Shown: positions 21,465-62,511 of the stretch, piece after piece | How positions within the stretch are numbered: position 1 is the first letter of the stretch | Layout: each line of letters opens with the position of its first letter | Source: Candidatus Woesearchaeota archaeon | GTDB lineage: Archaea; Nanobdellota; Nanobdellia; Woesearchaeales; GW2011-AR15 | Direction: 5' to 3' | Assembly: GCA_038874655.1 (NCBI GenBank) | Contig: JAVZBY010000002.1 | Location: forward strand, 57,335 to 121,334 | DNA: 64,000 bases | The notes under the pieces: generated by a model | The model's input: only the letters and a program-made list of their open reading frames with translations | Databases searched by the model: none | What the model was told of the DNA's origin: nothing | Translations under genes and position numbers: made by a program

Positions 21465-21492
21465 AATAAAATAGATACATCAGATATTTAAA

Positions 21493-22347: not shown

Positions 22348-22351
22348 AAAA

Positions 22352-26987: not shown

Positions 26988-27122
26988 AAAAAGAAAAAAC
27001 TTTGGAATGTATTTAGGTATATATCAGAGATATAACAAAATTTTATAGATATGCTTAAAATAATTATTATAATCTTATATTATTAGTTTTTTAATACTAT
27101 AGAATTTTAAGATGTGGTAAAA

Positions 27123-27524
27123 ATGATAAAAAAAGACTCTAAAAAATCAGAAAAAAAAATAATCCTCGTAGTTGATGATGAGCCTAATATTTTAGAATTA
27201 GAAAAAGCAATATTAGAGGTAGAAAATTATAATGTAATTACAGCACAATCAGGGCAAGAAGCATTAGATCTATTAAAAAAAATAAAACCAGATTTAATTT
27301 TATTAGATATGATGATGCCAAACATGTCTGGTAGAGAAGTTTGTGAAAGAATAAGAAAAGATCCAAAAACAAAAAAACTAAAAGTAATTTTTGTAACAGT
27401 AGCAAGGTTTTCAGAATTAGGTAAAGATCAATTAAAGGGGATGAATGTTTCTGATTATATAACAAAACCCTTTGAAAACTCTGATTTTATTAATAGAATA
27501 AAAAAAGTACTAGATGAAAAATAG
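27123..27524 (+). CDS. Stand-alone CheY-like response-regulator receiver
   Basis: ILVVDDEPNILE, LILLDMMMPNMSG (acceptor Asp), VIFVTV and YITKPF. The track starts at GTG 27114; I prefer the in-frame ATG at 27123. Confidence 0.9.
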   Translation: MIKKDSKKSEKKIILVVDDEPNILELEKAILEVENYNVITAQSGQEALDLLKKIKPDLILLDMMMPNMSGREVCERIRKDPKTKKLKVIFVTVARFSELGKDQLKGMNVSDYITKPFENSDFINRIKKVLDEK

Positions 27525-27659: not shown

Positions 27660-28190
27660 ATGGTTGTAAATCTTAAAGAAGAGATAAAAAATTCAGATAT
27701 TAATCTTATTATAGGTTCAAAATCTAATTATATAGAAAATATTAATTTTATATTAAAAGAAATTAATTTTATTTCAAATAAGATAGGTTATATAACTTTA
27801 AACAAACCATATACAAAAATACTTTCAGATATACAAAAACTAAACTTAGATAAGAATAAATTTTTCTTTGTGGATGCAATCACAGCAACAGTTTCCTCAC
27901 CCCCTATTGTAGATAATTGTGTTTTTGTTAGCTCACCTAGTGCATTAACAGAAATAAGCGTTAGTTTTTCAACATTAGTTCAAGAGAAAAATGCTGATTT
28001 GATTTTTTTTGATACAATATCTACTTTAATTATTTATCAAGATATAGGGCAAGTTATAAAATTTGCACATAATATAATTACAAAAGCAAGAGTTTTAGGA
28101 AAAAAAGCAATATTCCTAACATTAAAAGAAGATTCAGAAACCTTAATTAAAGATTTAAATATGTTTGTAGATAAAATTATTGAACTTTAA
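27660..28190 (+). CDS. Putative RecA/KaiC-fold protein lacking a P-loop
   Basis: ADLIFFDTISTLIIY resembles a KaiC Walker-B strand and GKKAIFLTLKED resembles the following strand. No GxxxxGK[ST] occurs anywhere in the protein. This assignment is weak. Confidence 0.35.
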   Translation: MVVNLKEEIKNSDINLIIGSKSNYIENINFILKEINFISNKIGYITLNKPYTKILSDIQKLNLDKNKFFFVDAITATVSSPPIVDNCVFVSSPSALTEISVSFSTLVQEKNADLIFFDTISTLIIYQDIGQVIKFAHNIITKARVLGKKAIFLTLKEDSETLIKDLNMFVDKIIEL

Positions 28191-30430: not shown

Positions 30431-30469
30431 AAAATAAAACAAATAACTAAAAAAATAAAAAACTAAAAA

Positions 30470-42400: not shown

Positions 42401-44860
42401 AATAATGAATTAAATGTTTCATTTACACAAGGCATACATACAATAAAAATTAGAGTTAATGACACTTATTATTACTTAGGAAACACATTACAAAGAATAA
42501 AAGATTCATTGCCCATAATTTTATACATTGATACAACTCCACCAACAATTACATTTAATACATTTAATTTAACATGGTTTAATTCAGAGCCAATAATAAA
42601 CTTCACTATAACAGATAATTTAGATAATTTAATTAATTATATAATTTATATAAATAATAATCCAGTTACATCTGGATCAGCAAATTCAAGCCCACAAAAC
42701 ATAACAATATATAATTTACAAAATGGAACTTATGAAATCTATATAGAAGCATTTGACGAAGCACTTAATTATAGAAATTCCTCTGTATTAACAATTTATC
42801 TAGATACTGTAAAGCCAACAATCTACTTATTGGCACCTCAAAATGGAATCTCTTTATTAGCTAATTATACAACCTTTAATTTTTCAGTAATTGATAATTT
42901 AGACACATTATTACAATGTAATTTAACAATTGATGCTAAAGTGAATGTTTCAAACATATATGCTTATAATAATTCTATAAATAGCACAGCTGTTTATAAT
43001 TTAAGAGAAGGCACTCATTATTGGAATGTTAGTTGTTGGGATGGCAACTTAATAACACCTGTAAGTTTAATAAACACTTCAGAAACATATTACTTCAATG
43101 TATATAATCCACCTATAATAAAGCTAATACAACCAGAAAACAACAATTGGACAAATAACCCAGAAGTTATTTTCTTCTTTAATGTTAGTGAGGAAACAGG
43201 ATTGCAAAACTGCTCTATTTTATTAAATGGAATTATTCAAAATACAAAACAAGGTAATTTACTTAATAAAAATGGTTTAAATAATATAACTTTAACAAAC
43301 TTAAATGGCACATATTCTTGGCAAATTGAGTGTTATGATAATACAACAATTTATAATTATGCAATCTCAGAATCAAGAACTTTAAATGTTGATTTAGATG
43401 CACCGATTCCTTATATAGAAACATTAAATAATACTTGGTTTAATTATAATAATCCCTTAATCTATTTTAATATATCTGATAACATGGCTTCAATAATTAA
43501 TTATACTTTTTATGTGAATTCAACACAAAACAGACAAGGCAGTGTAAATAATGCAACATCCACATCTATTAATTTAAATCCAATTCAAGATGGTTATTAT
43601 TTATTAACATTAGAGGCATTTGACTATGCTTACAATAGAAGAAATAGTTCCTCTATAACAATTTTTGTTGATACAACTAAACCAACAATAAGTTTATTAT
43701 CTCCAATTAATGGATTCAGCACATCAGATACAAATATATTGTTTAACTTTACATCATTAGATAATTTAGCAAAAACAATGATATGTAATTTAACAGTTGA
43801 CAATCAAATTATTAAATCATTCAACACGACATCAGGGTTATCTAATTACACTTATTTAAATATGGCAGCAGGTATTCATTATTGGAATGTATCCTGTTCA
43901 GATTTAGTTGGTAATTTCAATACAAGTGAAACATATTACTTTATAATCCCATTGCCTGATTTATATGTATCAGCAGATTATATCCTCTTTAATACAACAG
44001 CACCAGAAGAAAATACAAATATAACTATAAATGCAACAATCTTTAATATAGGAAACACAACTGCATACAATGTTACAATACAATTCTGGGATGGTCACTA
44101 TTTAAATGGAACACAAATTAATGGAAATTTTACATATAATATTTCAGCAGGCCAAAACATAACTATTAATTTATCATGGAAAGTAAGTTCTGTAGGAGAC
44201 CACTTTATCTATGTTATAGCTGATCCACCCTTACAAACAAATGGAACGATTAAAGAATCTAATGAAACAAATAATTATGCATATAAACTTATAATTGTTG
44301 GTAGTTATACATATATTTATGGTAATTTCTCAGGATTCCTAAATTTAAAGGACTTAAACAATATAACTGTCTATCAATGGGATATTAATGATTTAAACGG
44401 TTCAAAAATATTTGCTGTTGATTATGATAGTATTATAGATTGGCAGAAATTACAAGCAATCTCTAGAGATATTTATAATAACTATGTGTCTAATGACTTT
44501 TATGAAATAGATTTAGCATTAAGAATGGAAAATAACTCTGATTCTATAAATAAAACATGGATCTATAATAATAATCCTTATTACACAAAAAATTATAATG
44601 TTTTCCTCAATAATATACAAAATATTCCTTTTATTAACTCAACAAATACTACAAATTTCCAAACAGGTATTTTATGGGATTACTCTGATGGAAACACGCA
44701 ATATAATGGGACACAGGATTTAGTATTTTTTACAATTGTTAATATAAATCAAACAGGAATACATGGAAAATATGACTACGAATTAAGAGTTCCAGCAAAC
44801 TTAAGATATTATAAACAACCAAATATAGCTACAATTGCATTATATACAGAATTAAAATAA
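30470..44860 (+). CDS. Giant (4,796 aa) secreted, sequon-rich, multi-repeat adhesin-like surface protein
   Basis: A single uninterrupted 14.4-kb ORF. N-terminal signal FVSLFLIILIIVISIVIINAQN. Four macro-repeats ending in C.GGECG(D/N).NA.LDP. About 15 Ig-like ~95-aa repeats. Two CARDB-like domains (ITISINVSNIGGQPANNVLVNFYDG..ETNNNATINISV and ITINATIFNIGNTTAYNVTIQFWDG..ETNNYAYKLIIV). I see no C-terminal TM. Confidence 0.9.
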   Translation: MNSEKNYPKFVSLFLIILIIVISIVIINAQNLLENNYIKINKKEFFLGETVEIELLINDLNNINIDLYTPNAIYKYPFPSKIIKYKPILEGNYRLVVLKNKEILTTTTFFVKKNEYNLIEEILNQSTIKNNEETENLLDINKPNLITDKETYLLNQEVIISINNLSIDDLSNYNLIINSSNTIINYIDLKSNTIKFFPKKQGIYTLILISKKSNEEIAKKEISVNSFNQQFNNEISLNYDNKTNSINNNIDNQKEIMINQSIEYSDNLFNNSKNIEQLNRQYNNLPFKIKNSKNYFLIANITISNKRLKNLSLDTFSFINLSDDLYDIEIQPNIRQIRKIKLHNVSFKGNFDLGLEEIDSQATKFKDIKKAIAIDPSKINFTNGFIEINATSDVLLKCKDWNFTEQKCFGKFELIKTLNKGQTYFIDINSTDPAYYELGLASINTNKSLYKENETAQIWIVALDYTGHLISNANITLQIISPNNEIFIFSTDSNISQIELGIYELNFTTKEQGNYTIFANVYSNLINTTLFSFFSVVDYYEFEIIRKSPLTTDPWRDTFTTKLKIISNNHNGLFNLTEKIPIGFEIIETDAIITNDSNYYYLTWNNLQNNSEVNYTALAPFITPAVYEFKSFVSYEMNNQSLIFNEAKPWFLAVDPIMYTQVCQAQINSVGQNTFGSACDGVYPSSCSATGDLLTCNDNFFETHTGTNTNRWAGVRISAYDSTIRDCVSITRVELCYEWWRDIGFSNARIAVDRNNWASPTTVTTTLPGTTANPGVTCADVTSLEAWTCDNFDGTGQAAQAVAQAQRDNSGSTRTLYIDVLFFNVTYLRDYPPNITQNRPPSYYYNDTFSPINITFNCSAVDDIRVSNISLYITNLNNNSFALNQSCNILATSGSCQWTLLLPSGNYTWNCLAYDNRTQGTWGTNRTIIINYTMPPTPKINSYSCEINTLNNWQPCNTIAYGNTILRVRANCTTDSGLITNTTFLLYNLPDNIYLLNGTSTTQTSGYYIYDNPDLQITDSGYFNLSVQCFNSFNKNQTNTTAWNLAWGTLSSQLIYPFEPISVPQNSTFNFTSRLTCLGGECGDVNATLDPIYIVLFNHTFETGLEDFIWLDDIYGTNQPTQSEGYVTNRIFCPNGFCLFGDLHTVNNSNTGPWSGGFNKTFNLTSYTYGLKANITVNITFDYNLIIDQTTEAGEYVYLYYRNITSKTSVQGPNIQGSGAGGTDEVFENVSGRISLIFYNVSDVFSFDVGCYMTDTNANDEDGGCFIDNILIQATVELNKGKISNIPGTKPFWTLSPNPYTEANLACLRNMIAGQSCNTTWVVNATGPLYTTWDFFVLYEPTEYSSYLSFNKSKSVNITITDMVRPVITFVQCQRNSTSWVSCDSIKYNEYISGVRGTCTYTEGIITSMSFNLKNQFYNRTYFDVSTTDNSTNYWTSTFSPIRVNNSGNFALYSRCYANSLFGDYSLNWSLPYGTIYISWINLSSEVNVTQNKFSNFSVLLTCQGGECINISAFIDPEIGQQFALMTFDGSTNFPLRDGLCNTATDTCALSNPWDDFDNCIAGNGQYGICASRYAGSGGTERGLLCQGCDRNNAGNTGGLYISLNSTPCGGYPCQYIFISYYQAVQSMDAANEGSVVLVRDNDGIWREVSRCIDNDLCDCDRIAGCTLATIGQYAQYVNVNLCDIPGIDCTQPLDIFFTSYATNVNQGTGDYFMWDQINITGYLPKGIISYGSGSPFYTTYANPVYRQNNSCLAYLDVGQSCIITWPVNATGNLNSLHEFYVNATTFNNQTTQSSIIDVRITDNKLPYVSFITLNPINPTSYDNLNCSFIINDANYFDKLYANITWYRNDIVYSNQMISINNNQLTSVILSSSNTNNGEVWHCGITPYDETVYGNQLNSTKVNILISQPPIISNVQCQRNSTSWVSCSDIKFNDILTMVRAQCIDLDGYVMNVTFNLTNFEDKYLFFKNTTYMPESGYYYFNNTDILIRDSGNFNLSVSCIDDTNVETVYYLTWLVPFGKLKGQWLNPPNINVNVTRYKLSNFSVRIICEGGECGNITAVLDPLILYPQANMDFESPTNFPLATGQCGTGAGWQCADSSPWDDFDNCIGGNGVYGICASTEANSGETGIRGLECRGCDRADALNQGGLYINIPARSCNDYVCEQINISFYQIVQSMDNANEGSAVLVRDEDGIWRNLTTCMDNQPRCDCDVIPGCTRAEMGAYAQFFKKDLCQVPGINCSQNISILFTSYNLINHGTDDYFAWDKILVEKYGQKGIIPVGSGFPFYVIENNPRTWNDFSCLYNMTSGDSCEITWQVNATGNYNKTHEFFAYFNSTYSAIELNETKHIYVTITDNFPPRVTYVEIGPEVALNDTDIYCSFIITDPNYFDSLWANITWYRNKTFYFNQQVPISINTLTQVYLLANNTEPGEYWHCGVTPFDGSIYGNQVNSTNLTIYLYPPPSINSIQCNVNGLWKDCKNILYFTNFSAIRTNCSSNEGMVNATFNFTNIPDNKVFFNNLTTTYSNGYFIFDFEDINITDSGEMEIYAKCIDNVNQVVYGKVNWTILWGTLTASLVYPDSDTSVQRNNFFTFQARVTCSGGECGNINATLDPYTNSTIYDFKQGYNIDKFAWVIDSNNNPPESLPNSRTALTLAQVALINVSDNNRYTMPDPGAGDWISLDMIMNIKEKREDITKMQFYFEGYPNIASTLQIYAWNFNTNTWNSLGTQSFSTGSDQIMTVNITSNILNYINASNNNIRWLLLNTLTSEYILVDYVYVNITYNAYKGIIPRQEGAIPFYTRDYNPKDYTNQSCLGNMISGQSCIASWLVNATGPLGSTHEFFVYFNATNYSQYIMPKETTHIFITITDSTLVPPIVILNDPQDNLYTNNQNIIFNCSVTDNFNLKNISLVADFNGIFDINETYQITGTSNTSLFYKYLDDGKYIWNCLAYDSDNNLDWGNSNRTLTIDTKEPTIILNNPLNESSFTTTNLALNFTVIDALDKILNCDLYLNGFLYQQNINANNNSNTIINLINLTPNTYKWFITCIDDATNMNVSEEYIFYISDLPPSVSLLTPNNIYFRTPNISLFYFATDNLNINLSTLILNGYPFAYQYNLGTSVISSFNLTYMPEGLYNWTVNVSDSSNLTDQAPYRYFTIDYTEPIIYIYAPDNNLTINETQTRINFTVVDNLDFMIMCNLTINNQIAQTNIPAINNSFVSYLITNFYDGLNYWNLTCFDDAGNYITSETRILNVSAPPNVVLNYPFNNHFQNQQNITLYYTPQDNVNLSVCELFINGQYNQSNIEITNGVQNTFELTSLSENIYSWSVRCNDTSNLSTMSETRIFTIDLTKPTIYLLYPNNGDTIYGKWTNFNFSVIDNFDINLSCNITVDGLIRKSNLPVLNNTPTNFTINVSDEGPHTWYITCIDDATNFNVSETRNYFTTNPPEVQLVFPNNGAIINYNLINFTYIPIDDNLASATLILNGLRNETNTTLYNELENYFRIYLTDGIYNWTVNVTDATNLYTMPDVLTFTIDSTPPLITIHHPAGFEILDWNNITFNFTVSDNLFQPIYCNISINSVPQFTNIPVNNNSNVIRYYSLNDGTHSWQVRCIDLTNNTAIQTQNFIVEAPPRVNLINPVNQTRTTQQSFNFQYLPYDVFGLYNCTLILDNKLNESSSSILNNQINTLFVSYIPEGLHNWTVRCIDNPPDYNSYQPEPWQFRIDLTGPTIILKYPMQDQTFNLNNITFNYTAIDSDNIIIDCNISVSDPYGNRLNATSMPAGYDHIITITNLADGDHYWNVTCVDDLGNVNTSETRRFIINQPDLFTNNNLVFLNNINPDLYENITISINVSNIGGQPANNVLVNFYDGNPNLGGLFIGNDTNSVAINQTIAFTTSWLITPGYHTIYISVDPYNQISELDETNNNATINISVLWANITNPKNQSWFNTLIVPINFTAYDYTGNSITYIVLIDNTPNGQNGYVIDSINNELNVSFTQGIHTIKIRVNDTYYYLGNTLQRIKDSLPIILYIDTTPPTITFNTFNLTWFNSEPIINFTITDNLDNLINYIIYINNNPVTSGSANSSPQNITIYNLQNGTYEIYIEAFDEALNYRNSSVLTIYLDTVKPTIYLLAPQNGISLLANYTTFNFSVIDNLDTLLQCNLTIDAKVNVSNIYAYNNSINSTAVYNLREGTHYWNVSCWDGNLITPVSLINTSETYYFNVYNPPIIKLIQPENNNWTNNPEVIFFFNVSEETGLQNCSILLNGIIQNTKQGNLLNKNGLNNITLTNLNGTYSWQIECYDNTTIYNYAISESRTLNVDLDAPIPYIETLNNTWFNYNNPLIYFNISDNMASIINYTFYVNSTQNRQGSVNNATSTSINLNPIQDGYYLLTLEAFDYAYNRRNSSSITIFVDTTKPTISLLSPINGFSTSDTNILFNFTSLDNLAKTMICNLTVDNQIIKSFNTTSGLSNYTYLNMAAGIHYWNVSCSDLVGNFNTSETYYFIIPLPDLYVSADYILFNTTAPEENTNITINATIFNIGNTTAYNVTIQFWDGHYLNGTQINGNFTYNISAGQNITINLSWKVSSVGDHFIYVIADPPLQTNGTIKESNETNNYAYKLIIVGSYTYIYGNFSGFLNLKDLNNITVYQWDINDLNGSKIFAVDYDSIIDWQKLQAISRDIYNNYVSNDFYEIDLALRMENNSDSINKTWIYNNNPYYTKNYNVFLNNIQNIPFINSTNTTNFQTGILWDYSDGNTQYNGTQDLVFFTIVNINQTGIHGKYDYELRVPANLRYYKQPNIATIALYTELK
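33704..38272 (+). repeat. In-frame macro-repeat region of the giant gene, delimited by four GGEC anchors
   Basis: GG(T/A/G)GG(T/A)GAATG(T/C) occurs at 33704, 34982, 36619 and 38261, giving spacings of 1278, 1637 and 1642 nt. Units 2 and 3 are collinear paralogues and share a 27-nt perfect match (35125..35151 = 36766..36792). Confidence 0.9.
39070..43950 (+). repeat. Array of about 15 Ig-like coding repeats (~280-290 nt each), largely alternating between two types
   Basis: Type A: PP.V.L..P.N...(F/Y)..(D)N..L..C.L.(L/I)NG...Y.W.V.C.D.SN. Type B: (K/E)PTI.L..P.NG......NF.V.DNLD....CN(L/I)T(V/I)(D/N)...H.W.(V/I)(T/S)C.D.A.N. Approximate starts are 39070, 39369, 39655, 39936, 40213, 40497, 40780, 41052, 41330, 41620, 42241, 42534, 42808, 43105, 43390 and 43675. 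Confidence 0.85.
44300..44857 (+). other. C-terminal tail module of the giant protein, homologous to the small secreted proteins at 52654 and 53556
   Basis: YIYGNFSGFLNLKD..VYQWD..IIDWQKLQAI..DSINKTW..FQTGILWD..LVFFT..KYDYELRVPANL..IALYTELK. Confidence 0.8.
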
Positions 44861-44881: not shown

Positions 44882-46744
44882 ATGAAAAATAAAAACATAA
44901 TAAGAATTACTTTATTTTTATTTGTTTTAATATTATTTAGTTTTATTATTGTTATTTATATTGCAAAAGCACAATGTCAATTAAAAGAAATTCCGTTTTT
45001 TGAATTAAATGAAGGGGACATTTTTAATTATACTTTAAATTTTGTAAATCAAAACATTTCTGAAAAAGGATTATCAGAAATTAAAATTTCACTTATAAAG
45101 ATAAATTCTTCAATAAATCCTGTGATTAAAAATAATCTAATTAATTTTAAAGCAGATCAAAACTCAGGAAACAAAAATTCGTTTTTAATTGTTTCAACAA
45201 TGGAAAATGGGTGCTATGATGTTAAGAAATTTGATTTTTTTGTTTATTTAAAACCTAAAATTATGGAAAAAAACCCAATAGAGGATTATTTAGAAATTTA
45301 TGAGACACAATCAATAAAATTTTATGCTTCAGCATATTCTTTTTATGATACTGATGTAAAAACAGAGTGGTATTTAAATGGAATTAAACAAAAAGAGAGT
45401 TCTAATTCTTATATCTTTTTCACAAATTATAGTTCAAAAGGATTATTCACATTAGAATATGTTGCAAAAGATAAAAGGCAAAACACAACAATAAAATGGT
45501 TAATAAATGTAAAAGATAAAAATAGAAAACCTATTTTAAGATTTAATATTCCTGACTTTGTTTTAACAAATTATACAAGAGGAAGATTATTGAATTTAAA
45601 TGATTACTTTCAAGATCCAGATTTAGACAAATTAAAATTTGAATTAGTTTATTTTGATAAAATTAATAATTCTATTAAAGAAAAGTCCTATGAAATTTTT
45701 AATTTTAGTATTAAAGATAATGGTGATTTTGAAGTTTATCCAATTAAAAACATTTATTTAACAGAATATCTTAAAGTAATTGCTTATGATTTTCAAGGAG
45801 AAAAAGCAGAAAGCAATATTTTCTTTATGAAATTAGTTAATTCAGATAATATAAGTTATATCTTTCTAAATACTTCAAAAAAAGAACAATGTAAACCAAA
45901 TATACAATGTACAGAATGGAGTCCATGTTTGATTACAAACATTAGAACAAGAGAATGTTTTGATGTAAATAATTGTAATTCAGAGAACACTACAATTACA
46001 GAAACAATGCATTGTGATTATAATGCTACTTGTAATGATGGAATTTTGAATCAAGGTGAAGAAAAAGTTGATTGTGGTGGCCCATGTGAACCCTGTCCAA
46101 CTTGTGATGATGGTATTTTAAATCAAGGTGAAGAAAAGGTTGATTGCGGCGGTCCTTGTCAAGCTTGCGAAAATTGTTATGATGGTATAAAAAATCAAAA
46201 TGAAATATTTACCGATTGCGGTGGTCTATGTAAAAGTTGTTTATTATTAGATATTATTAACTTCATAAAAAGTTATTATTATTTAGCATTTATATTTATA
46301 TTTTTATTAATTATAAAAATCTATTCAAAAAACATTAGTAGTTCTGATAAAATAAAAAATTATATCTTTTATTCAAAACTATTTAATTTTTTACCTAAAA
46401 AAATTCCAGAAAATTATAAAGAGATTTTTACTCAAACAATTTCAGATTTAACAAGCATAAAAAATGATATTTTAAATCTTGAAGATAAAGAAAAAATAAA
46501 AGAGAAATTTTATAATATTATAGATAACTTTTACAAAAATTTTTTAGAATTAGATCTTGTAAATAATATTACTGTAAAAAATTCTTCAAAAAAAATAATA
46601 AATCCCTTTTTAAGAGAATTAATCTTGTTATTGTATTATGATACAAGAGATATTTCAGTTGAATCACCTTTTTATAGAATTGAGTTAAATGAAAAAATAG
46701 ATCAAACAATTGCAATATTAAATAAGATTAGGGATTTATTATGA
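44882..46744 (+). CDS. Surface protein: signal, Ig/cadherin-like region, TSR-like Cys motif, 3x CxDGxxNQxExxxDCGGxC mini-domains, TM, cytoplasmic tail
   Basis: LNLNDYFQDPDLDKLKFEL (cadherin-like). QCTEWSPCLITNIRTRECFDVNNC. CNDGILNQGEEKVDCGGPCEPC, CDDGILNQGEEKVDCGGPCQAC and CYDGIKNQNEIFTDCGGLCKSC. TM YYLAFIFIFLLIIKIY. Confidence 0.75.
   Translation: MKNKNIIRITLFLFVLILFSFIIVIYIAKAQCQLKEIPFFELNEGDIFNYTLNFVNQNISEKGLSEIKISLIKINSSINPVIKNNLINFKADQNSGNKNSFLIVSTMENGCYDVKKFDFFVYLKPKIMEKNPIEDYLEIYETQSIKFYASAYSFYDTDVKTEWYLNGIKQKESSNSYIFFTNYSSKGLFTLEYVAKDKRQNTTIKWLINVKDKNRKPILRFNIPDFVLTNYTRGRLLNLNDYFQDPDLDKLKFELVYFDKINNSIKEKSYEIFNFSIKDNGDFEVYPIKNIYLTEYLKVIAYDFQGEKAESNIFFMKLVNSDNISYIFLNTSKKEQCKPNIQCTEWSPCLITNIRTRECFDVNNCNSENTTITETMHCDYNATCNDGILNQGEEKVDCGGPCEPCPTCDDGILNQGEEKVDCGGPCQACENCYDGIKNQNEIFTDCGGLCKSCLLLDIINFIKSYYYLAFIFIFLLIIKIYSKNISSSDKIKNYIFYSKLFNFLPKKIPENYKEIFTQTISDLTSIKNDILNLEDKEKIKEKFYNIIDNFYKNFLELDLVNNITVKNSSKKIINPFLRELILLLYYDTRDISVESPFYRIELNEKIDQTIAILNKIRDLL
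46031..46240 (+). repeat. Three tandem in-frame copies (72, 72 and 66 nt) of the CxDGxxNQxExxxDCGGxCxxC mini-domain
   Basis: Copies start at the TGT codons at 46031, 46103 and 46175. Copies 1 and 2 are nearly identical at the protein level. Confidence 0.9.
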
Positions 46745-49494
46745 AAAAATATAATGACATTACTAATAAAATTAAAATAAAAATATTAAAAAAAATATTG
46801 CAATTAATTTTTAGGTTATACTTTAGATTATACTTATTTATTTCATGTTTTATATTATTTATATTATTTTTTAATCCTGTCTTTTCACAAGAATTAAATT
46901 TTTCACTAGAATTAAATAAAGTCAATTTTTTTCTTAATGAACCTGTAATTATAAATTTAGAAGAGGATTATTATAAATTAAATAACACAAATTCATTTGA
47001 TAATTTAACATTAAAAATAATATCCCCAAACCATTATTATAATTATTTAGGAGGTCTAGATAAAAGATTAATTTTTCAACCAAATGAAATTGGTAAGCAT
47101 TATATAGAATTATATTTTAATAATGAGCTGGTAAAAAAATTAGAATTTATTGTTTTTGAAACCAATTCTCAAGTTTCTGAGAATTCTTCTGTTTTAAATA
47201 ACTTAAATATATCGCGAAACAATATATATAATAATGTTTCTGAAAATCAAACAGAAATTATGATTATTCAAAATTCAAATTTTTCAACAAAACAATCGAA
47301 TATAAAATTATTAGATATCATAAAAATTAATGTAAAACAAAATTATTCTTTAGATGAAAATGTTTTTATCACACTAACAAAAAATGAACAAACTCTTTAT
47401 GCAATAAATCCAAGAGAAGACATCAATTTTTCAAAATTAATAATACATTCAAATAAAGATTATGTTTATGAAAATCCAAAAAATAAAATAATTTTTAAAC
47501 CTTCTGAACTTGGTAAACATGAAATTATTTTATATGATACTTTTGATAATGAAGTAGCAAGAGCATCATTTAATGTTATAGAAAATAAAAAATTTATTAT
47601 TAAAGATAGTAAGGGGAAAAAAATAGATGCAACATTTCAATACAAAGATAAAATAAAAAAAAATATTTCTGAATTAATTTCTGAAATTAAAAATGAAAAA
47701 AATCAAAAAATAGAATTAACAGTTTTACCTAATCTAAAAAATATAAAAAAAATTACTTTTAAAGATATAAACCTAGAAAATAGTTTTGATTTTTATCTAG
47801 AAGATCTTGATACATTTAATTTAGAAAGAAGTTTCATAAAAGCATATGCAATTAATCCTGAAAATTTAGATTTCTCAGAAGCAATTTTAACAAGCATAAG
47901 TCAAGGAAAAACACTTTATAAGTGTGCAGAATGGAATTTTCAAGAACAAAAATGTTATGGTATTTGGAAAAAAATAATGTCTTTAGTTCCTGGACAAGAA
48001 TATAATGTTATTATAACAAAAAATGACCCTGCATATGCAGAAAGTAATGAACTTATTGAACCTAAACCTGTAAGTGGTTTTGTTTTTATGTCAGATAATA
48101 CAAGAGCAAATAATGGTATTCCAGTAAGAATTTTTAATAAAGCAAATGGTGAAAGTGTTTTAACACAGGTTTATGCACCACCAATTCCAATATATAAAGG
48201 AGCTTATTCTGCTAATATTTATGGAATAACTGGAGATTCTATTGTTGTAAGAGCATGGAATTCTACACATTATGGCGAAACAAATGCAACTTTATTAGCA
48301 ACAACAACTTATGTTAATATAACAATTCAATATTTTAAAGGAAGTGAACCCAATGTTTCAATAATTTATCCATTAAATAATTCAATTTTTTATTTAGGTC
48401 AAAATTTTAATATAACTGCAAAAGTTCAAATATTAAATAACAATGCAGAAAAGTGTTATGCTTCTTTTATTAGCACATTAGCTGAACCAATAACAGGGCA
48501 AAGTAATACAATTTTTTTAGGAGACATAATGCAAAATAATGAAATTACTTTTATGTTTAATTTAACTGCAATAAAAGGCGGCTATGAAAAATTAATTGTT
48601 AATGTTTCTTGTTCAACAGATACAATTCTAGATGGCTTAAATATAGCAAGAGTAAATTTAACTTTTATTGATAATGTTAAACCAGAGATAACAATATTTA
48701 AACCTCTAAATAATGAAGAATCATTAAATCCTATTAAGTTTATATTTAATGTTTCAGATCATACGGGCATAAAAAACTGCTCATTAATTTTTAATGGTAA
48801 TTTAAATCAGACAATTTTTAATCCACAAATGTATATTTTACATTCTTTTAATTTAACCTTGCAAGCAGGAACATATAATTATAACATTGATTGTTATGAT
48901 AATTCAACTTTATTTAATTATAATATTACTGAAACCATAAACTTTTTTCTACCCTCATGGCATTTTTATTATGGTAATATAAGCTCAAAAATATTTTTAG
49001 GCTCTGGGGAAATTGAAAAATATTCTTGGGAAACCTATTCAGAGGCATATCTTTATGTGATTGAAACAAATACAGTTGTAGATTGGAATAATTTACAAGC
49101 ATTAGGTAGAGATAAATTTAATAATTCAGAATTTAATGATTTTAACGAAGCAGATATCAATTTATCGATGCAAAATTTTGTTGATTCAATTAATAATACT
49201 TTTACTCAAAATTATCAACCAAAAAAATTAGTTAATTTAACCATTTTCGGAAAAAGAATAAATAACATTCCAGTAATAAACTCAACAAATAACTCTAATT
49301 TTATTACAGGCATTCTCTGGGAAATGACTGGCAATAATTATAATGGTAGCCAAAATTTAATATTCTTTACAAATAAAAGTATTGCAAAACAAGGCAAATT
49401 TGGTTTATATGAATATGAAATAAGAATCCCTGCTAATTTGAAAAATTATAAATTAAATTCTGGGACTATCACTTTTTATACTGAGATAATATAA
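46741..49494 (+). CDS. 917-aa secreted surface protein, head-and-tail paralogue of the giant protein
   Basis: ATGA start/stop overlap with the upstream gene. The N-terminal ~450 aa are collinear with the giant (for example KCAEWNFQEQKCYGIWKKI..NDPAYAE versus KCKDWNFTEQKCFGKFELI..TDPAYYE). Ig-like repeats are present (VKPEITIFKPLNNEE..). The C-terminal tail module is at nt ~48952-49491. Confidence 0.85.
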   Translation: MKKYNDITNKIKIKILKKILQLIFRLYFRLYLFISCFILFILFFNPVFSQELNFSLELNKVNFFLNEPVIINLEEDYYKLNNTNSFDNLTLKIISPNHYYNYLGGLDKRLIFQPNEIGKHYIELYFNNELVKKLEFIVFETNSQVSENSSVLNNLNISRNNIYNNVSENQTEIMIIQNSNFSTKQSNIKLLDIIKINVKQNYSLDENVFITLTKNEQTLYAINPREDINFSKLIIHSNKDYVYENPKNKIIFKPSELGKHEIILYDTFDNEVARASFNVIENKKFIIKDSKGKKIDATFQYKDKIKKNISELISEIKNEKNQKIELTVLPNLKNIKKITFKDINLENSFDFYLEDLDTFNLERSFIKAYAINPENLDFSEAILTSISQGKTLYKCAEWNFQEQKCYGIWKKIMSLVPGQEYNVIITKNDPAYAESNELIEPKPVSGFVFMSDNTRANNGIPVRIFNKANGESVLTQVYAPPIPIYKGAYSANIYGITGDSIVVRAWNSTHYGETNATLLATTTYVNITIQYFKGSEPNVSIIYPLNNSIFYLGQNFNITAKVQILNNNAEKCYASFISTLAEPITGQSNTIFLGDIMQNNEITFMFNLTAIKGGYEKLIVNVSCSTDTILDGLNIARVNLTFIDNVKPEITIFKPLNNEESLNPIKFIFNVSDHTGIKNCSLIFNGNLNQTIFNPQMYILHSFNLTLQAGTYNYNIDCYDNSTLFNYNITETINFFLPSWHFYYGNISSKIFLGSGEIEKYSWETYSEAYLYVIETNTVVDWNNLQALGRDKFNNSEFNDFNEADINLSMQNFVDSINNTFTQNYQPKKLVNLTIFGKRINNIPVINSTNNSNFITGILWEMTGNNYNGSQNLIFFTNKSIAKQGKFGLYEYEIRIPANLKNYKLNSGTITFYTEII
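48952..49491 (+). other. C-terminal tail module of the 917-aa protein
   Basis: FYYGNISSKIFLGS..KYSWE..VVDWNNLQAL..DSINNTF..FITGILWE..LIFFT..LYEYEIRIPANL..ITFYTEII. Confidence 0.8.
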
Positions 49495-52463: not shown

Positions 52464-52673
52464 ATGAAACCAACTGAATGGGTTAAATTAGTTTATAGTG
52501 AAACCCCTGATAAAGCAAATGTAAAACAGGGTTTTCTTTATGATGAGGGAGATTTCTATAGAATTGTTGGTTCTAATTCTGAAACACTTGTAAGAAAAGT
52601 CAATGTCATCTCTATTACTAAAAAAATTAATTTTGAAAAAAAGGTGAGAAACTATGAAAGAATTAGGCTATAA
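52464..52673 (+). CDS. Small hypothetical protein, 69 aa, first gene of the secreted-protein operon
   Basis: AGCAGGTG lies upstream of the ATG. It overlaps the next gene by 20 nt. No motif is recognised. Confidence 0.45.
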   Translation: MKPTEWVKLVYSETPDKANVKQGFLYDEGDFYRIVGSNSETLVRKVNVISITKKINFEKKVRNYERIRL

Positions 52674-53451
52674 ATTATTAACTTATTTATCAGTTGTTTT
52701 TGTTTTTTTAATTGCATTTTTTTATGCAAATGCAATTGAAGTCCCAATGGGAGCACAAACAGTAACAGAAGGATATGAATCCACAATTAACAATAGTAAT
52801 TATCCTCCAGCATCAATTCAAGCATATGCTGGTAATATCTCACAATTGACAATCTTTGGTAGATCACAAACAAAACACTGGCAAGGTTATTATGGTGAAG
52901 TTTCAGGTGTAATTGTTTTGGATGATGCACAAAACTGGACAATGTATGACTGGCCAAACCCAGAACCAAAAGGTGAAATATATGCAACAGTTAGTGCAAC
53001 AACACCTATCTGGAATACAATAAGATGCTTTAATTACTCTGGAACAGAGGCAGGCAGCACAAATAACACCTTTTACTGGGAATCATTTTACAACATGACC
53101 TTTAATGATGTTGACGGAATTGATGAAACTTTCAATATTACACAGCATCCAACTTTTGATGTAGGTGAATTTACAATCACAGAAAACACATGTCCAAGTA
53201 CATTCACACATGTTAATGACCAATGGCAAGAACAAAGATTTGTAGAAATTTTATTACAAGATGCAAACGGTCTTTTAATCTTTACAACAATAATAGAAAA
53301 TAAAGATGAAGGTATTAATGATGATGTTGTTGGTTATAATGGAGTTACTCATGACTTTCAATTATTAGTTGCAGAAGATGGTACAAGTAGATCAGGTGGA
53401 GCTAGAAACCAAGACACAACAACATATTACTTTTACTTAGATTTAGAATAA
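52654..53451 (+). CDS. Small secreted protein consisting almost entirely of the tail module (candidate fibre/surface subunit)
   Basis: AGGTGAG RBS. Signal LLTYLSVVFVFLIAFFYANA. Module blocks: HWQGYYGEVSGVIVLDD..MYDWP..DGIDETF..FVEILLQD..LIFTT..THDFQLLVAEDG..YYFYLDLE. Its composition is less Asn/Lys/Ile-biased than its neighbours. Confidence 0.75.
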   Translation: MKELGYKLLTYLSVVFVFLIAFFYANAIEVPMGAQTVTEGYESTINNSNYPPASIQAYAGNISQLTIFGRSQTKHWQGYYGEVSGVIVLDDAQNWTMYDWPNPEPKGEIYATVSATTPIWNTIRCFNYSGTEAGSTNNTFYWESFYNMTFNDVDGIDETFNITQHPTFDVGEFTITENTCPSTFTHVNDQWQEQRFVEILLQDANGLLIFTTIIENKDEGINDDVVGYNGVTHDFQLLVAEDGTSRSGGARNQDTTTYYFYLDLE

Positions 53452-53457
53452 AAGTAC

Positions 53458-53469
53458 TTTTATTTTTTT
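53458..53469 (+). terminator. Oligo-T tract after the first secreted-protein gene
   Basis: TTTTATTTTTTT begins 7 nt after the stop codon. Archaeal terminators are typically oligo-T. Confidence 0.3.
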
Positions 53470-53555
53470 AATAAAATTATAATAAAAAATTATGATAAAA
53501 AGCAAAGTAGGTTTAAGATAAGGAAAAAAGGTAAGAAGGCTAGGAGGCAAAAATC

Positions 53556-54329
53556 ATGAAAAATTTCCAAGAAAGCAAAGGAAAAGAAATGACAAAAGTA
53601 GTCATTTCTATCATGATTTTTGCCTCTCTATTATTTTCCTTAATAATAGCACAATTGATAATAGTTAAAGCAGACCCTGATGGTGCGGATGTTGTTTATA
53701 TAACTAATTCAAGTAAAGTTGCAAAAACCCCTGATAATAGAACAGATGCAAAAGGAACTATAACAACTATTTTTTTAAATACAGTTCAGCAAAACATAAG
53801 ATGGAAAGCATATGTAGGAAATGTATCAGGTAAATTAGTTTTAAGGGATGCAGAACAATACAGCATTTATGAATGGCCAGCAATGGCAAACCCAGATGGT
53901 GTTATTTTTATAACAATGAATCAAAGTATAGATTGGACTACTATTCAATGTGCAAACACAAGTGATATACAAAACTTTCAATTATCATTAGGTCATAGTA
54001 ATTCAGCTCTTGATAATGTTAATAATACCTTTAATACAAAAATTCATCAAAGTTTTGATGTAGGTGTAAAGCCATTTTCAAGTAATCAATGTTGGTCAGC
54101 ATTTCCTTGGGTAAATAACTCAGCACAAACACCTAGTACAAATGCTTTATTTCAAGAAGTTTTACTTATGGATGCAAACAGAAGAATTATTTTTGCTTCA
54201 TTAATTGATCAAGATACTCAAAGTTATAGAAATGATGGTACAACAAAATATGATTTTCAAGCTTTAGTTCCTGATTACACTAGTGCAGAAAATGCACTTT
54301 ATTATTTTTATGTTGAAATATCTGGATAA
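53556..54329 (+). CDS. Small secreted protein, paralogue of 52654..53451 (tail-module family)
   Basis: AGGAGG RBS. Hydrophobic VVISIMIFASLLFSLIIAQLII. Module blocks: RWKAYVGNVSGKLVLRD..IYEWP..SIDWTTIQCA..DNVNNTF..FQEVLLMD..IIFAS..KYDFQALVPDYT..YYFYVEISG. Confidence 0.75.
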   Translation: MKNFQESKGKEMTKVVISIMIFASLLFSLIIAQLIIVKADPDGADVVYITNSSKVAKTPDNRTDAKGTITTIFLNTVQQNIRWKAYVGNVSGKLVLRDAEQYSIYEWPAMANPDGVIFITMNQSIDWTTIQCANTSDIQNFQLSLGHSNSALDNVNNTFNTKIHQSFDVGVKPFSSNQCWSAFPWVNNSAQTPSTNALFQEVLLMDANRRIIFASLIDQDTQSYRNDGTTKYDFQALVPDYTSAENALYYFYVEISG

Positions 54330-54373
54330 AAATAAATTAAATTATTGACTATAATAAAAAGGAAAAGATAAAA

Positions 54374-55297
54374 ATGGAAAATGTAATGCCAAGCAAAACA
54401 GAGCAAAACCTTATTTTAATAGGTTTATCTCTATTATTTGTAGCTTGGCTTCTATTATTGATTGAACCCTTGATAAATAGTCAACCTTATAATTCAACAG
54501 CATTAGTTAACACAACAGTTAATATAACAAATTCAGCTCCAATGGTTTATAATGTTTTTTTAGATACACCAATTAATTTAATAGCTTATGGTAATAAAAC
54601 AGTATATTGTAATGCTACAATTTTTGATTTTGATAATCAAACTATTGCAGTTAATGCTACTCTATACATTGTTGGTATAACAGATGAAAATTCACCAGAT
54701 GATGGCAATGATCATTATACAAATACAAGTTGTACAAGAGTAAGTCCACAAGATAGAGAAATGCAATACAGATGTGCATTTTCAGTAAGATATTATGCTA
54801 ATAATAATACTAATTGGCGTTGTAATGTTACAGCTATAGATACAGGTAATGCAATTAACTCAAATATTTCAAATTTAGCAACAATAAATCCTTTAGTTGC
54901 TATAAAATTACCCCCTTTAATTGATTATGGTGATTTAGCAGTTTGGGATATTTCACAAGATATAGATGCTAATGTAACAAACGCAGGAAACAGAGACGCA
55001 AATATCTCTGTAGAAGGATGGGGCTCAACCCCTGGAGATGGCTTAGCATTTGTTTGTGATTTTGGGTCAATAGCAATATCTTATGAAAGATATGACATTA
55101 CAACAGGAACAAACTATAATTTAATGTCTCAATTAAGTACTACAACAACAATGATTCAAAACTTTTATGTTCCTCAAAGAACAAGCGAAATATATGATTC
55201 AATTAACTCAACATGGTGGAAAGTACAAATTCCAATAGGCGCAGGTGGTGTTTGTAATGGAACAATCTTATTTACAGCAACAGATAGAGGGAATTAA
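54374..55297 (+). CDS. Secreted beta-rich protein, third gene of the operon, function unknown
   Basis: Hydrophobic LILIGLSLLFVAWLLLLI. DANVTNAGNRDANISVEGWG. The C-terminus WWKVQIPIGAGGVCNGTILFTATD only loosely resembles the tail-module end. Confidence 0.6.
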   Translation: MENVMPSKTEQNLILIGLSLLFVAWLLLLIEPLINSQPYNSTALVNTTVNITNSAPMVYNVFLDTPINLIAYGNKTVYCNATIFDFDNQTIAVNATLYIVGITDENSPDDGNDHYTNTSCTRVSPQDREMQYRCAFSVRYYANNNTNWRCNVTAIDTGNAINSNISNLATINPLVAIKLPPLIDYGDLAVWDISQDIDANVTNAGNRDANISVEGWGSTPGDGLAFVCDFGSIAISYERYDITTGTNYNLMSQLSTTTTMIQNFYVPQRTSEIYDSINSTWWKVQIPIGAGGVCNGTILFTATDRGN

Positions 55298-55308: not shown

Positions 55309-57216
55309 TTATTCTTTGTTAATATTTTCTTTATCTTGCTTTTCATCTTGTGTATTTTTTTTAGTATCTATTTGACTATTTTCTTTGTTATCTTTAAACT
55401 CATTATTAAGCTCTTCTTCCACTTCTTTTTCTTCTCTCAATTTTTTATATTGCAGTAATATATCTTTATGAGTTTTTTGTATTAATAATAAACTTCTTTT
55501 TAAATTATTCAATTTCTTATTTTCATCAGAATCATCATTAAATTGGTAATTATTTATTTCTTCTATAGTGTTAATTAAATAATCTTGGCTTTCAATAGGA
55601 TATTTGCTTTTATTATTATGAAGTTCCATTATTGAAAATCGTATATCTTTTAAACAAACAGCTAAATTTTTATCAATATTTTTATAATTAATATAATTCA
55701 ATATATTTAATGCTTTAATCTCTTCTTTTCTTATTTCTTCAAATTCAATTTTTATTAATTTTTCTAAATAATCTTCATGTTCCAATATTGTTTTCCTTAA
55801 TTTATTTTTTTTCCTTTTTTCATCATAAACATAATTTTTTATAATTACATAAATAATTAAAGGAATTATAATTAAAATCATCAAAAATATCCAAACCTCA
55901 ATTTCACAAAAATAATATAAATACATAGAAACAGCAATTTCTAATAATATAATAATCAAAATAAAAACTTTTAGATTTCTGTTTAAATCATATATTTTTA
56001 TTAATTGTTCTATTTTTCTTAATTTTTTAAACTCCTTGCTGTTTTTAATTTTTAATGTATATGCTTTTCCTATTAAATATATTAATAAACTAAAAACAGA
56101 TGCTAATAAAACAAATAGCCATGGGAAATCACCACAACCCTTTGCTAAAAAAATAGCAATAGTACTAGGTTTTTCTAAGCTAGGTTTTTCACATGGCTGA
56201 CAAGGGCCTCCGCAATCTATTTGCTCTTCTCCTTGATTTTTAAAACCATCATTACAAGTAGGCTCTTCACAAATATTTTTAGTTGGATTACAAAAACCAG
56301 ATTTACAATCATAATCAAATAAGCATTTTTTACCTAAATCACATGGCTTGCATTTTAGACCTCCACAATCAACATCAGTTTCATCTTGGTTTCTTAAAAG
56401 ATCAAAACAGGTTCCTAAATAAATACAGGTTCTATTTAATTCAGGTTTTAAAAATTCTGTTGTACAATTATTTCTATCAAAACATTCTCTATTTTGAATT
56501 TCAGTTATAGGACATTCTTCAGGAAACCATTCACTACAAAGCCAATCTTCTTGACAATATGCAGATGTTAAATTTTGATTTCCTAAACCTTCTGCACTTC
56601 CAGTAGCATAACCCCCTGTGCCACCACCAGTACCACCTCCAGCACTAGCTCCACCACCTCCTGCAGAAGCACTTCCTTCTGTACTTCCAGTAGCATTGCC
56701 ACTTCCAGACCCTGTTCCAGATTGATTACTAGGACATTTACCACAATCTTCTTGACAAACAATACAATTTTCTGTAATTTCACAATGTCCATTTCCACAT
56801 CTAGGGTTAGGTGTTATATTAACCATTTGATAATTCAATCCATAAAAATCACTATACCAAACCGTATCTCCTATAGTTAATGCAGTTTCATTATTTATCT
56901 TAAAAATAATATTTTGTCCAAACACAGCACCTTCTATTTTGTTAGTATAATTGTCATCACCTAAACATGTTAAAACACCATAATAACCAGGATTTATAAT
57001 AGAAAAAGAACCACAACTTATATTTCCTGCATAAACATCAATCTTTGTTCCAACACTTAAAGGACTATTATTTAGATCAAGCCATGTTGCAGTTCCATAA
57101 AACTCAGTAGGAATAGGAGGAATAGCCGTAGAAATATATAATAAACAAATAAACAATACACTTAAAAAAATTTTAATAAACTCTTTCTTACTTATTTTTT
57201 TAATAATTCTTTTCAT
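55309..57216 (-). CDS. Surface protein: signal, beta-sandwich head, Cys motifs, Gly/Ser/Ala/Thr linker, TSR-like motif, CxDGxxNQ mini-domains, TMs, cytoplasmic coiled coil
   Basis: PIPTEFYGTATWLDLNNSPLSVGTKIDVYAG..GAVFGQNIIFKINNE. CGNGHCEITENCIVCQEDCGKCP. GTGSGSGNATGSTEGSASAGGGGASAGGGTGGGTGG. LCSEWFPEECPITEIQNRECFDRNNC. CFDLLRNQDETDVDCGGLKCKPC. CNDGFKNQGEEQIDCGGPCQPC. Confidence 0.75.
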   Translation of the reverse strand: MKRIIKKISKKEFIKIFLSVLFICLLYISTAIPPIPTEFYGTATWLDLNNSPLSVGTKIDVYAGNISCGSFSIINPGYYGVLTCLGDDNYTNKIEGAVFGQNIIFKINNETALTIGDTVWYSDFYGLNYQMVNITPNPRCGNGHCEITENCIVCQEDCGKCPSNQSGTGSGSGNATGSTEGSASAGGGGASAGGGTGGGTGGYATGSAEGLGNQNLTSAYCQEDWLCSEWFPEECPITEIQNRECFDRNNCTTEFLKPELNRTCIYLGTCFDLLRNQDETDVDCGGLKCKPCDLGKKCLFDYDCKSGFCNPTKNICEEPTCNDGFKNQGEEQIDCGGPCQPCEKPSLEKPSTIAIFLAKGCGDFPWLFVLLASVFSLLIYLIGKAYTLKIKNSKEFKKLRKIEQLIKIYDLNRNLKVFILIIILLEIAVSMYLYYFCEIEVWIFLMILIIIPLIIYVIIKNYVYDEKRKKNKLRKTILEHEDYLEKLIKIEFEEIRKEEIKALNILNYINYKNIDKNLAVCLKDIRFSIMELHNNKSKYPIESQDYLINTIEEINNYQFNDDSDENKKLNNLKRSLLLIQKTHKDILLQYKKLREEKEVEEELNNEFKDNKENSQIDTKKNTQDEKQDKENINKE

Positions 57217-62010: not shown

Positions 62011-62511
62011 TTAAGTATACAAAACCCCAACAACAAAATGGGTTATTTTACTCTTTTCAATAATTTCTCCTTCTTTTAATGAATCTCCTTGGACATAAAC
62101 TTTATCACCATAATCAGCTCTAACTCTATGGATTACTGCTTGTCCATTATCTCTCACAAATCTTACGATTTGTCCTGGTTTTATTTTTTCACCATTATAT
62201 TTTTTTTCAATTAGAGTATTTCCGTCAAAAATAGTTGGTTGCATACTTGGGCCATTAAAAATGCCATAATCATTAGCTAAAACATAAAACCCTTGTGGAT
62301 TCAAATAATACTCCAAATCATAATGACTTCCTTCGATAAAATTAAAATTTTGATTATCTTCAATTTTTTTTAATGTCTCATTAATATATCTAAATTTTTC
62401 TTTCATTTCATTAAAATTTTTTGCATAATTTATATTCAAAAATATTAAAGAGAGTAATATTAATAAAAATAAAACATTAAAAGTAAATTGATTTTTATCA
62501 TATATTACCAT
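62011..62511 (-). CDS. S26-family signal peptidase I-like protein, Ser/His (Sec11/SipW) type
   Basis: TM FNVLFLLILLSLIFLNI, GPSMQPTIFDGNTLI (catalytic Ser box), GQIVRF, AVIHRV (His box) and VYVQGDS. Confidence 0.6.
   Translation of the reverse strand: MVIYDKNQFTFNVLFLLILLSLIFLNINYAKNFNEMKEKFRYINETLKKIEDNQNFNFIEGSHYDLEYYLNPQGFYVLANDYGIFNGPSMQPTIFDGNTLIEKKYNGEKIKPGQIVRFVRDNGQAVIHRVRADYGDKVYVQGDSLKEGEIIEKSKITHFVVGVLYT

Follow-up and report, generated by a model that had tools for sequence, protein, structure and literature searches.

How are giant secreted proteins that have no C-terminal anchor mounted on an archaeal cell? This question is raised by a surface-protein locus of Candidatus Woesearchaeota archaeon (assembly GCA_038874655.1), contained in 64,000 nucleotides of contig JAVZBY010000002.1 (positions 57,335 to 121,334, forward strand), a stretch hereafter called the window. 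In this locus, a giant protein of 4796 amino acids (aa), a 917-aa "mini-giant" and two small secreted proteins, P1 and P2, end in versions of one module. Woesearchaeota and their DPANN relatives, abundant and uncultured, are presumed to be host-attached, and their mode of attachment is almost wholly obscure. The locus ties the giant surface proteins of this lineage to a few secreted proteins that are predicted to be well expressed, and these proteins of ~25 kDa are tractable targets for revealing how the giants are mounted.

A module common to giant and small secreted proteins

First, P1, P2 and the C-terminal ~185 aa of the giant and of the 917-aa protein are homologous, as judged from pairwise and profile alignments. 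An earlier, sequence-only reading of the window had claimed that these four proteins share one module of five blocks; the four open reading frames (ORFs) and every block string quoted from them were recovered in their places. P1 and P2 were aligned over their full length using BLASTP (E 2e-27, 28% identity), and the tails of the giant and the 917-aa protein also matched each other (E 7e-39, 36% identity). The giant tail and P2 matched over 54 aa only, in blocks 1 and 2 (E 2e-4), so that profiles were needed to link the two families. When a 40-sequence alignment of the P1/P2 family was compared with a 23-sequence alignment of CARDB domain plus tail using hhalign, a probability of 98.6% (E 1e-15) was obtained over 179 columns, including all five blocks. 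The controls against P3, a family that is as Asn/Thr-rich and secreted as the P families, were far weaker (66% over 35 columns and 1.3% over 27 columns). P3 itself was rejected as a further copy of the module because of these weak scores and the lack of cross-matches. The tail profile also retrieved free-standing P genes of other genomes in hmmsearch (E 4e-10 to 3e-5). Conservation across the two families falls mainly on Gly and on aromatic and hydrophobic residues (G, S, L, Y, W, W, D, T, N, F, Y), which do not form a catalytic set; His164 and Glu201 do not vary within the P family, and the tails do not keep them. The P1-type, P2-type and tail classes are separated by about equal pairwise distances. 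Relatives of P2 (n=91) have 213-273 aa, except two shorter sequences (170 and 207 aa) that are probably partial, and contain no Pfam domain. Relatives of the tail (n=21) often consist of CARDB plus tail, with precomputed PF07705 in 11 of 21, and CARDB directly precedes the tail module in those members of the 23-sequence alignment that reach upstream of it.

Second, the module is a large unannotated domain family, found in a conserved surface-protein locus and specific to DPANN. A profile built from the four modules of the window was run with HMMER against 1.84 billion representative proteins (clusters at 50% identity), and matches came from at least 1,373 clusters at E <= 1e-3, of which 1,070 reached E <= 1e-10. 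In every one of the best 150 of these clusters, 0-4 residues separate the end of the module from the C-terminus, and in all but two the module is matched as a single stretch; 52 are free-standing proteins (230-290 aa, module start at residue 45-100), and the remaining proteins reach up to 6018 aa, 30 of the 150 being longer than 2000 aa. Wherever the sources of relatives of the window proteins are named, they are exclusively Candidatus Woesearchaeota or Nanoarchaeota metagenome-assembled genomes (MAGs). A viral origin of the module was rejected, as no relative was found in IMG/VR viral contigs. Many third-party annotation (TPA) assemblies titled "uncultured Methanosarcinales archaeon" (loci L006, L007, L010, L014-L018 and others in our numbering) carry the locus with the gene order of the Woesearchaeota MAGs, and these titles look like placeholders or wrong taxonomy. 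In addition, one P3 relative (P0165) is labelled Anaplasmataceae bacterium and probably lies on a mis-binned contig.

Third, the module belongs to no named family, in agreement with the sequence-only reading. No match was found for P1, P2 or the tails in Pfam, NCBIfam or the sequences of the Protein Data Bank (PDB), with single sequences or with profiles, and a direct assignment also failed in Foldseek searches of PDB and BFVD, where nothing better than E 0.028 was obtained in BFVD. In an AlphaFold2 model of P2 built with the 40-sequence alignment, residues 83-257 are modelled confidently (predicted local distance difference test, pLDDT, 72-98 by block and 85-98 for the domain) as ~10 strands and two short helices. 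Structure comparison of this model did not reveal an incomplete Ig-like pilin fold with a missing G strand. Carbohydrate-binding and enzyme families gave no profile or fold match in Pfam, NCBIfam, PDB or BFVD, and neither PF07705 nor related Ig-like profiles matched the module, CARDB matching just the domain upstream of it in the giant. In the literature on DUF5752, DPANN giants, Woesearchaeota CARDB proteins, and DPANN S-layers and cryo-electron tomography, no description of the module, the locus or the free-standing paralogues was found.

Fourth, the module recurs in a conserved gene neighbourhood. The context survey covered +/-10 kb around the P genes of three P2 relatives and of GTDB species genomes (155 relatives, 76 loci), and counts out of 81 loci include the window. 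The co-occurrence of module-only genes with giants that end in the module, which the sequence-only reading had led us to expect, was found in these related genomes. The recurrent order is a CARDB-plus-tail giant, a Cys-rich membrane protein like the 620-aa protein of the window, a second tail protein, a DUF5752-like gene, a 69-aa ORF, P1-type, P2-type, P3 and an extra P2-type gene. At least two P genes were observed at 79 of 81 loci and one P gene at two short loci, with a mean of 3.1-3.6 and a maximum of 6 per locus. Among the loci with full 10-kb flanks (n=24), P3 is present at 20 and a DUF5752-like gene at 17, and a P3 gene comes directly after a P gene in 55 of 69. P1-type and P2-type genes belong to separate subfamilies of ancient divergence, which nearly always appear together and in one order. 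At L002, L003, L020, L024, L030 and L052, the P genes reach 5-6 copies, interspersed with small helix-turn-helix (HTH_5/HTH_20-like) genes and long spacers, which suggests that the expanded copies are individually regulated subunit variants.

Proposed role of the module

What might such a module do? P1 and P2 had been described as the module alone behind a signal peptide, and this description has to be given up, since a conserved extension of ~45 aa lies between the predicted signal-peptidase I site and the module. The site, (V/I/A)-x-A / (D/E)-P-x-G, follows the hydrophobic h-region and was read by eye as conserved in 40 family members. A type IV pilin reading of the hydrophobic N-terminal segment was rejected, because the motif comes after the h-region and no type IV pilus genes lie in the window. 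The extension is rich in N-x-S/T sequons and contains a motif, GGT(I/F)TT..L in P2-type and A.AGNVTELN(I/F) in P1-type proteins, which is among the most conserved positions of the protein; the Gly of the P1-type motif is conserved in ~99% of 80 sequences. From the start of the motif it is ~17 residues to the conserved Trp with which the module begins, and residues 66-79 of P2 are unstructured in the AlphaFold2 monomer (pLDDT <50). In the giants, which are without the extension, the module is joined directly to the final strand of an Ig-like domain (CARDB or Big_7). The extension was also considered as a remnant of CARDB and rejected as such (hhalign probability 0.2%).

The two ends of the giants and the expression signals of the small proteins also bear on this question. 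As had been read from the sequence, both giants begin with a signal-like segment, end in the module and have no C-terminal hydrophobic anchor. In BLASTP comparisons between genomes, no other part of the giants is kept as well as the tail (43-50% identity, versus 25-31% or no match outside it); the 25-31% belongs to the N-region of ~440 aa, which is also found in the 917-aa protein and in the counterpart at locus L001, and the mid-section consists of repeats. Thus, the tail behaves as a constant assembly or anchoring end and not as a rapidly varying binding tip. The claim that P1 and P2 have the strongest ribosome-binding sites in the window was correct for P2, which ranks first of 33 genes in predicted pairing with the anti-Shine-Dalgarno sequence, and was only nearly so for P1, which ranks fourth; none is detectable for the giant. 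An oligo-T tract follows P1, and a TTTAAATA box lies upstream. These predicted expression signals fit abundant subunits.

Herein, we propose that the module serves as a common domain for assembly or docking outside the cell, specific to DPANN archaea of the Woesearchaeota/Nanoarchaeota type, and that P1 and P2 are structural subunits that the giants join via the module. We advance this reading tentatively, at a little short of an even chance of being right. P1, P2 and their paralogues elsewhere would be exported through the Sec pathway, cut by signal peptidase I at the conserved site and probably N-glycosylated because sequons are abundant; we read these steps from sequence motifs and infer those that come later. 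The small proteins would be the repeating structural units of a short fibre or a patch of lattice on the cell surface, and the strand-like motif in the N-terminal extension of one subunit would bind the neighbouring module. The giant and the 917-aa protein have one C-terminal module and no extension, and could accept but not donate; this would let them enter the assembly as end pieces or decorations. In this way, the conserved heads at their N-termini would be held out on long shafts of Ig repeats for contact with a host or substrate, and P3, with its tandem Ig-like domains, together with the Cys-rich type-I membrane proteins would be the likely base or membrane link. Module-module association, the fibre or lattice geometry and strand insertion are hypotheses. 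The fibre with tip adhesins suggested in the sequence-only reading is plausible as a hypothesis: the homology, the unnamed module and the co-occurrence speak in its favour, and the absence of a pilin-like fold match and of chaperone, usher or type IV machinery in the window speaks against it.

Several results weigh against an assembly domain of this kind. The best Foldseek match of the P2 model in PDB reached E 0.58, and no pilin, TasA, thread or cannula subunit was matched; as the PDB library holds such subunits, the module is not detectably one of these, and donor-strand exchange would be without structural precedent for its fold. The confidence of the modelled domain is high without a complementing strand and gives no hint of an incomplete fold, and the models of P2 and P3 are those of monomers only. 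Only ~9-17 residues separate the extension from the first strand, and packing in cis would be a simple alternative. A tail-bearing large ORF lies within 10 kb at just 15 of the 24 full-flank loci; in other words, the linkage is frequent and not obligatory. Moreover, "tip adhesin" describes one of two possible polarities of the giants.

A more specific form of the proposal is a surface organelle particular to DPANN archaea, made of a chaperone-free polymer or lattice of P1/P2-type proteins with a new fold and N-terminal strand insertion, carrying the giants at one end and having P3 and the Cys-rich proteins at the membrane end. We regard this picture as possible and, on balance, doubtful. If it is true, this organelle would be the main means by which Woesearchaeales attach to hosts and an independent, third-domain invention of the "pilin domain plus adhesin" principle. 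Polymerisation of the small proteins via the N-terminal strand would make them donor-strand filaments of a new fold class; failing that, the module would still be a useful genomic marker of the attachment locus in metagenomes.

The module might instead be a lectin-like, ligand-binding head at the distal C-terminal tip, with the giants held in the membrane by the N-terminal segment and P1/P2 serving as short secreted or tethered binders, for example of host glycans. We consider this rather unlikely. A novel lectin would be compatible with a beta-rich fold without match, with a strictly terminal position on very long Ig-repeat proteins and with 2-6 paralogues per locus, as in variable binders, and acidic and polar positions that both families conserve (the D in DSINxT, the D after LLxD/ILWD, YD(F/Y)(Q/E) and the terminal E) could make a Ca2+ or sugar site. 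However, the tail is the most conserved and not the most variable part of the giants, the giant and the 917-aa protein have signal-peptidase-like c-regions near the N-terminus (INA/Q, VFS/Q) that make N-terminal anchoring doubtful, and the module lacks likeness to the carbohydrate-binding families in Pfam or PDB. A ligand-binding head would also leave unexplained the conserved, unfolded extension that is limited to the small proteins and the fixed P1-P2-P3 order.

It is quite improbable that P1, P2 and the giant tail form a fixed hetero-oligomeric knob, that is, a pseudo-symmetric cap comparable to three gC1q chains or phage fibre knobs, instead of an open polymer or lattice. The 2-6 paralogues per locus, together with about twice as many P2-type as P1-type sequences, fit interchangeable subunits better, the strong Shine-Dalgarno sequences of P1 and P2 against none detectable on the giant argue for an excess of small subunits, and no fold similarity to C1q/TNF or fibre knobs was found, although a cap would agree with exactly one module per giant, with three module classes at about equal distances and with distinct P1-type and P2-type subfamilies nearly always paired in the same order. 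Finally, a C-terminal sorting or secretion signal domain (as in the type IX secretion system, T9SS, or archaeosortase-type signals), possibly removed, with P1/P2 as small cargoes or decoys, is highly improbable: the position at the C-terminus with at most 4 residues after the last strand is typical of sorting domains, and the locus has conserved membrane and cytoplasmic proteins (DUF5752-like, 69-aa ORF) with HerA- and KaiC-like ATPases elsewhere in the window, but all carriers have Sec-type N-terminal signals in a single-membraned cell that needs no second export step, proteins that are hardly more than the "signal" would be senseless as cargo, 185 aa with a conserved core is far larger than known sorting domains, and window scans gave no archaeosortase, rhombosortase or T9SS-like match.

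The locus and its surroundings

The window has a G+C content of ~23%, and all the relevant genes of the surface locus, from the giant through P3, lie on the + strand (Table 1). Along the giant gene, the G+C content is ~30% in the middle (32000-38000) versus ~19-20% in the first 1.5 kb and upstream (30000-32000), and the P1/P2 stretch (52-54 kb) is fairly G+C-rich, with 28%.

Table 1. Coordinates of the genes and domains of the surface-protein locus, followed by other genes of the window
Feature	Coordinates	Strand	Characteristics	Basis
Giant secreted protein, 4796 aa	30470..44860	+	Signal-like N-terminus MNSEKNYPKFVSLFLIILIIVISIVIINA/QN; signal-like segment, conserved N-region (~aa 11-440), long Ig-like repeat shaft with Big_13 and two CARDB, C-terminal module	ORF, Pfam (CARDB 1.2e-22), BLASTP
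CARDB (Ig-like), directly upstream of the giant's tail module	43955..44281	+	aa 4496-4604	PF07705
Tail module of the giant, 187 aa	44297..44857	+	Runs to the stop codon	BLASTP, profiles
620-aa type-I membrane protein	44882..46744	+	Signal, Ig-like region, three CxDGxxNQxExxxDCGGxC repeats, transmembrane (TM) helix, ~140-aa cytoplasmic tail	Sequence, syntenic homologue at L001
917-aa "mini-giant"	46741..49494	+	Signal, N-region in common with the giant, Big_7 Ig domain, tail module	
Tail module of the 917-aa protein	48940..49491	+		BLASTP, profiles
DUF5752-like coiled-coil protein, 357 aa	51061..52134	+	Without signal peptide	Pfam PF19027, 3.8e-6 (above cutoff)
69-aa ORF, conserved	52464..52673	+	Without signal peptide; own Shine-Dalgarno sequence (AGGTG); overlaps the P1 start by 20 nt	
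P1, 265 aa	52654..53451	+	Signal peptide aa 1-27 (ANA/IE), N-terminal extension aa 28-75, module aa 76-265	
P1 extension motif AYAGNISQLTIFG	52822..52860	+	P1-type consensus A.AGNVTELN(I/F)	
P2, 257 aa	53556..54329	+	Signal peptide aa 1-39 (VKA/DPDGA), extension aa 40-82, module aa 83-257	
P2 extension motif AKGTITTIFL	53748..53777	+	G67 invariant in the 40-sequence alignment	
P3, 307 aa	54374..55297	+	Signal/TM helix, then two beta-sandwich (Ig-like) domains	
635-aa Cys-rich membrane protein	55309..57216	-	Cys-repeat region in common with the 620-aa protein	BLASTP E 3e-25
1105-aa secreted-looking protein	1719..5036		PKD, MopE motif	
1219-aa protein	5038..8697	+	N-terminal CarboxypepD_reg-like beta-sandwich plus HerA/DUF87 (VirB4-like) ATPase	
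Second DUF5752-like gene	8754..9650			
Full KaiC/RecA-like ATPase	12574..13410	+		PF06745, 1.1e-49
Signalling block	19647..27524	+	PAS/GAF protein, solute-binding protein, response regulator, 1271-aa histidine kinase fused to extracellular SBP_bac_3	
Shorter KaiC-like fragment protein	27660..28190	+		
Signal peptidase I	62011..62511	-	Peptidase_S26/S24	

Two small proteins had been recognised in the range 52654-55297, which also holds a third conserved gene, P3. The P3 family has 96 matches, and its model (AlphaFold2, pLDDT 93) consists of a signal/TM helix and two beta-sandwich domains whose Foldseek neighbours are generic tandem-Ig folds only (FimH/transglutaminase-type, TM-score 0.2-0.35). 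The N-terminus of P3 looks cleavable (...I-x-S/G / Q-P-Y-N-x-T), with a predicted pyro-Glu start, which would leave the Cys-rich type-I proteins as the only conserved integral-membrane parts. A second P3 paralogue (P0153, 302 aa, 55% identity, QXE31_02200, Candidatus Woesearchaeota archaeon) lies outside the window, probably on the same contig, and the genome may therefore have a second P-type locus.

The 620-aa protein, the sole conserved integral-membrane component beside the giants, recurs at 23 of 81 loci, with a homologue of 752 aa at L001 (E 7e-81), and a gene like that of the 635-aa protein is also found at the end of the locus in other genomes. Both proteins carry the tandem Cys repeat C-x-DG-x-x-NQ-x-E-x-x-(V/I)DCGG-x-C-x-x-C, preceded by a C..W..C...R.C.D.N.C motif, with more repeat copies in the L001 homologue; these repeats have no match in Pfam. 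A multi-pass membrane protein that follows P3 at L001 was rejected as a conserved partner, since it is not homologous to the 635-aa protein. The DUF5752-like gene keeps its place upstream of P1 (L001 homologue E 5e-35) and was seen at 40 of 81 loci. The 69-aa ORF has a 66-aa homologue at the equivalent site of L001 (EWVKLV..ETP.K..VKQG.LYD.G.FY...G..SETLVRK..VISITKK), recurs at 13 of 81 loci and gave no match in a Pfam search.

Elsewhere in the window, the 1105-aa secreted-looking protein and the second DUF5752-like gene flank the 1219-aa gene, so that DUF5752-like proteins go with two separate groups of large-surface-protein genes. The KaiC-like genes adjoin unannotated ORFs of 1480 aa and 557 aa. 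The signalling block lies directly upstream of the giant-protein locus and is unusual for a reduced DPANN genome. The signal peptidase I gene lies ~7 kb downstream of P3, and its product is a candidate processor of the conserved (V/I/A)xA sites in P1 and P2.

Comparison with known systems

Membership in the chaperone-usher, type IV and known donor-strand systems fails wherever it can be tested. P1 and P2 differ from type IV pilins and archaellins in that the cleavage-like motif lies after the hydrophobic segment and not before it, and type IV pilus machinery domains were absent from the Pfam scans of the window. In its logic, the locus comes nearest to chaperone-usher pili and to the chaperone-free archaeal donor-strand filaments. 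The likeness to chaperone-usher pili (subunits FimA, FimG and FimF, tip adhesin FimH) is one of principle. In both, a far larger, adhesin-like protein ends in a copy of the domain that makes up the small subunits, and an N-terminal extension with a strand-like motif occurs on the small subunits only, which mirrors the N-terminal extension of pilins versus the tip adhesin, insertion being our suggestion in the present case. The genes are also clustered, and P3, a protein with two Ig domains, is encoded beside the subunits. In contrast, the window system belongs to an archaeon with a single membrane, the fold of the module has no Foldseek match to pilins, and neither a PapD-like chaperone nor an usher was detected in Pfam scans of all window ORFs of >=100 aa.

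AbpA of Pyrobaculum is a bundling pilus. Chaperone-free donor-strand filaments of archaea and Gram-positive bacteria include the Sulfolobus threads Saci_0406/0405 (PMC9715654), the Pyrodictium cannulae made of CanA (10.1101/2024.12.30.630787), bundling pili such as the haloarchaeal Tat-dependent pilus (PMC12337348), and TasA (PMC9674648). The cleavage-like site of P1 and P2 resembles the signal-peptidase I site LVA/DV of the archaeal thread subunit (PMC9715654). Threads, cannulae, bundling pili and TasA are similar to P1 and P2 in having beta-rich subunits of ~20-25 kDa that are Sec-exported, with a predicted signal-peptidase I site and an N-terminal tail before the globular domain, as well as abundant sequons, paralogous subunits in one locus and no dedicated assembly ATPase adjacent. 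They differ in that no sequence, profile or Foldseek similarity links them to the P1/P2 module. The literature yielded neither a culture nor images of a Woesearchaeota carrier. In the window system, the same domain also ends proteins of several thousand residues. To our knowledge, such an arrangement has not been reported for threads, cannulae, bundling pili or TasA.

SLH domains and CWB2 (SlpA/Cwp of Clostridioides difficile) are modules common to abundant structural and large functional surface proteins, and place all of them in the same layer. They bind bacterial secondary cell-wall polymers, usually as tandem repeats. The window module is similar in that one conserved module occurs on small proteins predicted to be abundant and on many large surface proteins. 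It differs in being single and strictly C-terminal, in an archaeon without a wall polymer, and it gave no SLH or CWB2 signal in Pfam.

The name "SPEARE" is used for DPANN giant proteins of this kind. Giant proteins have been discussed for nanohaloarchaea (PMC10266531), and a parasitic lifestyle has been reported for Nanohaloarchaeum antarcticus (PMC11291902). The giants of other DPANN archaea and of the candidate phyla radiation (CPR) differ from the window giant in domain content, CARDB plus Big_13 being found only in the latter, and resemble it as secreted Ig-repeat proteins of several thousand residues, belonging to ultra-small episymbionts and presumed to make contact with the host.

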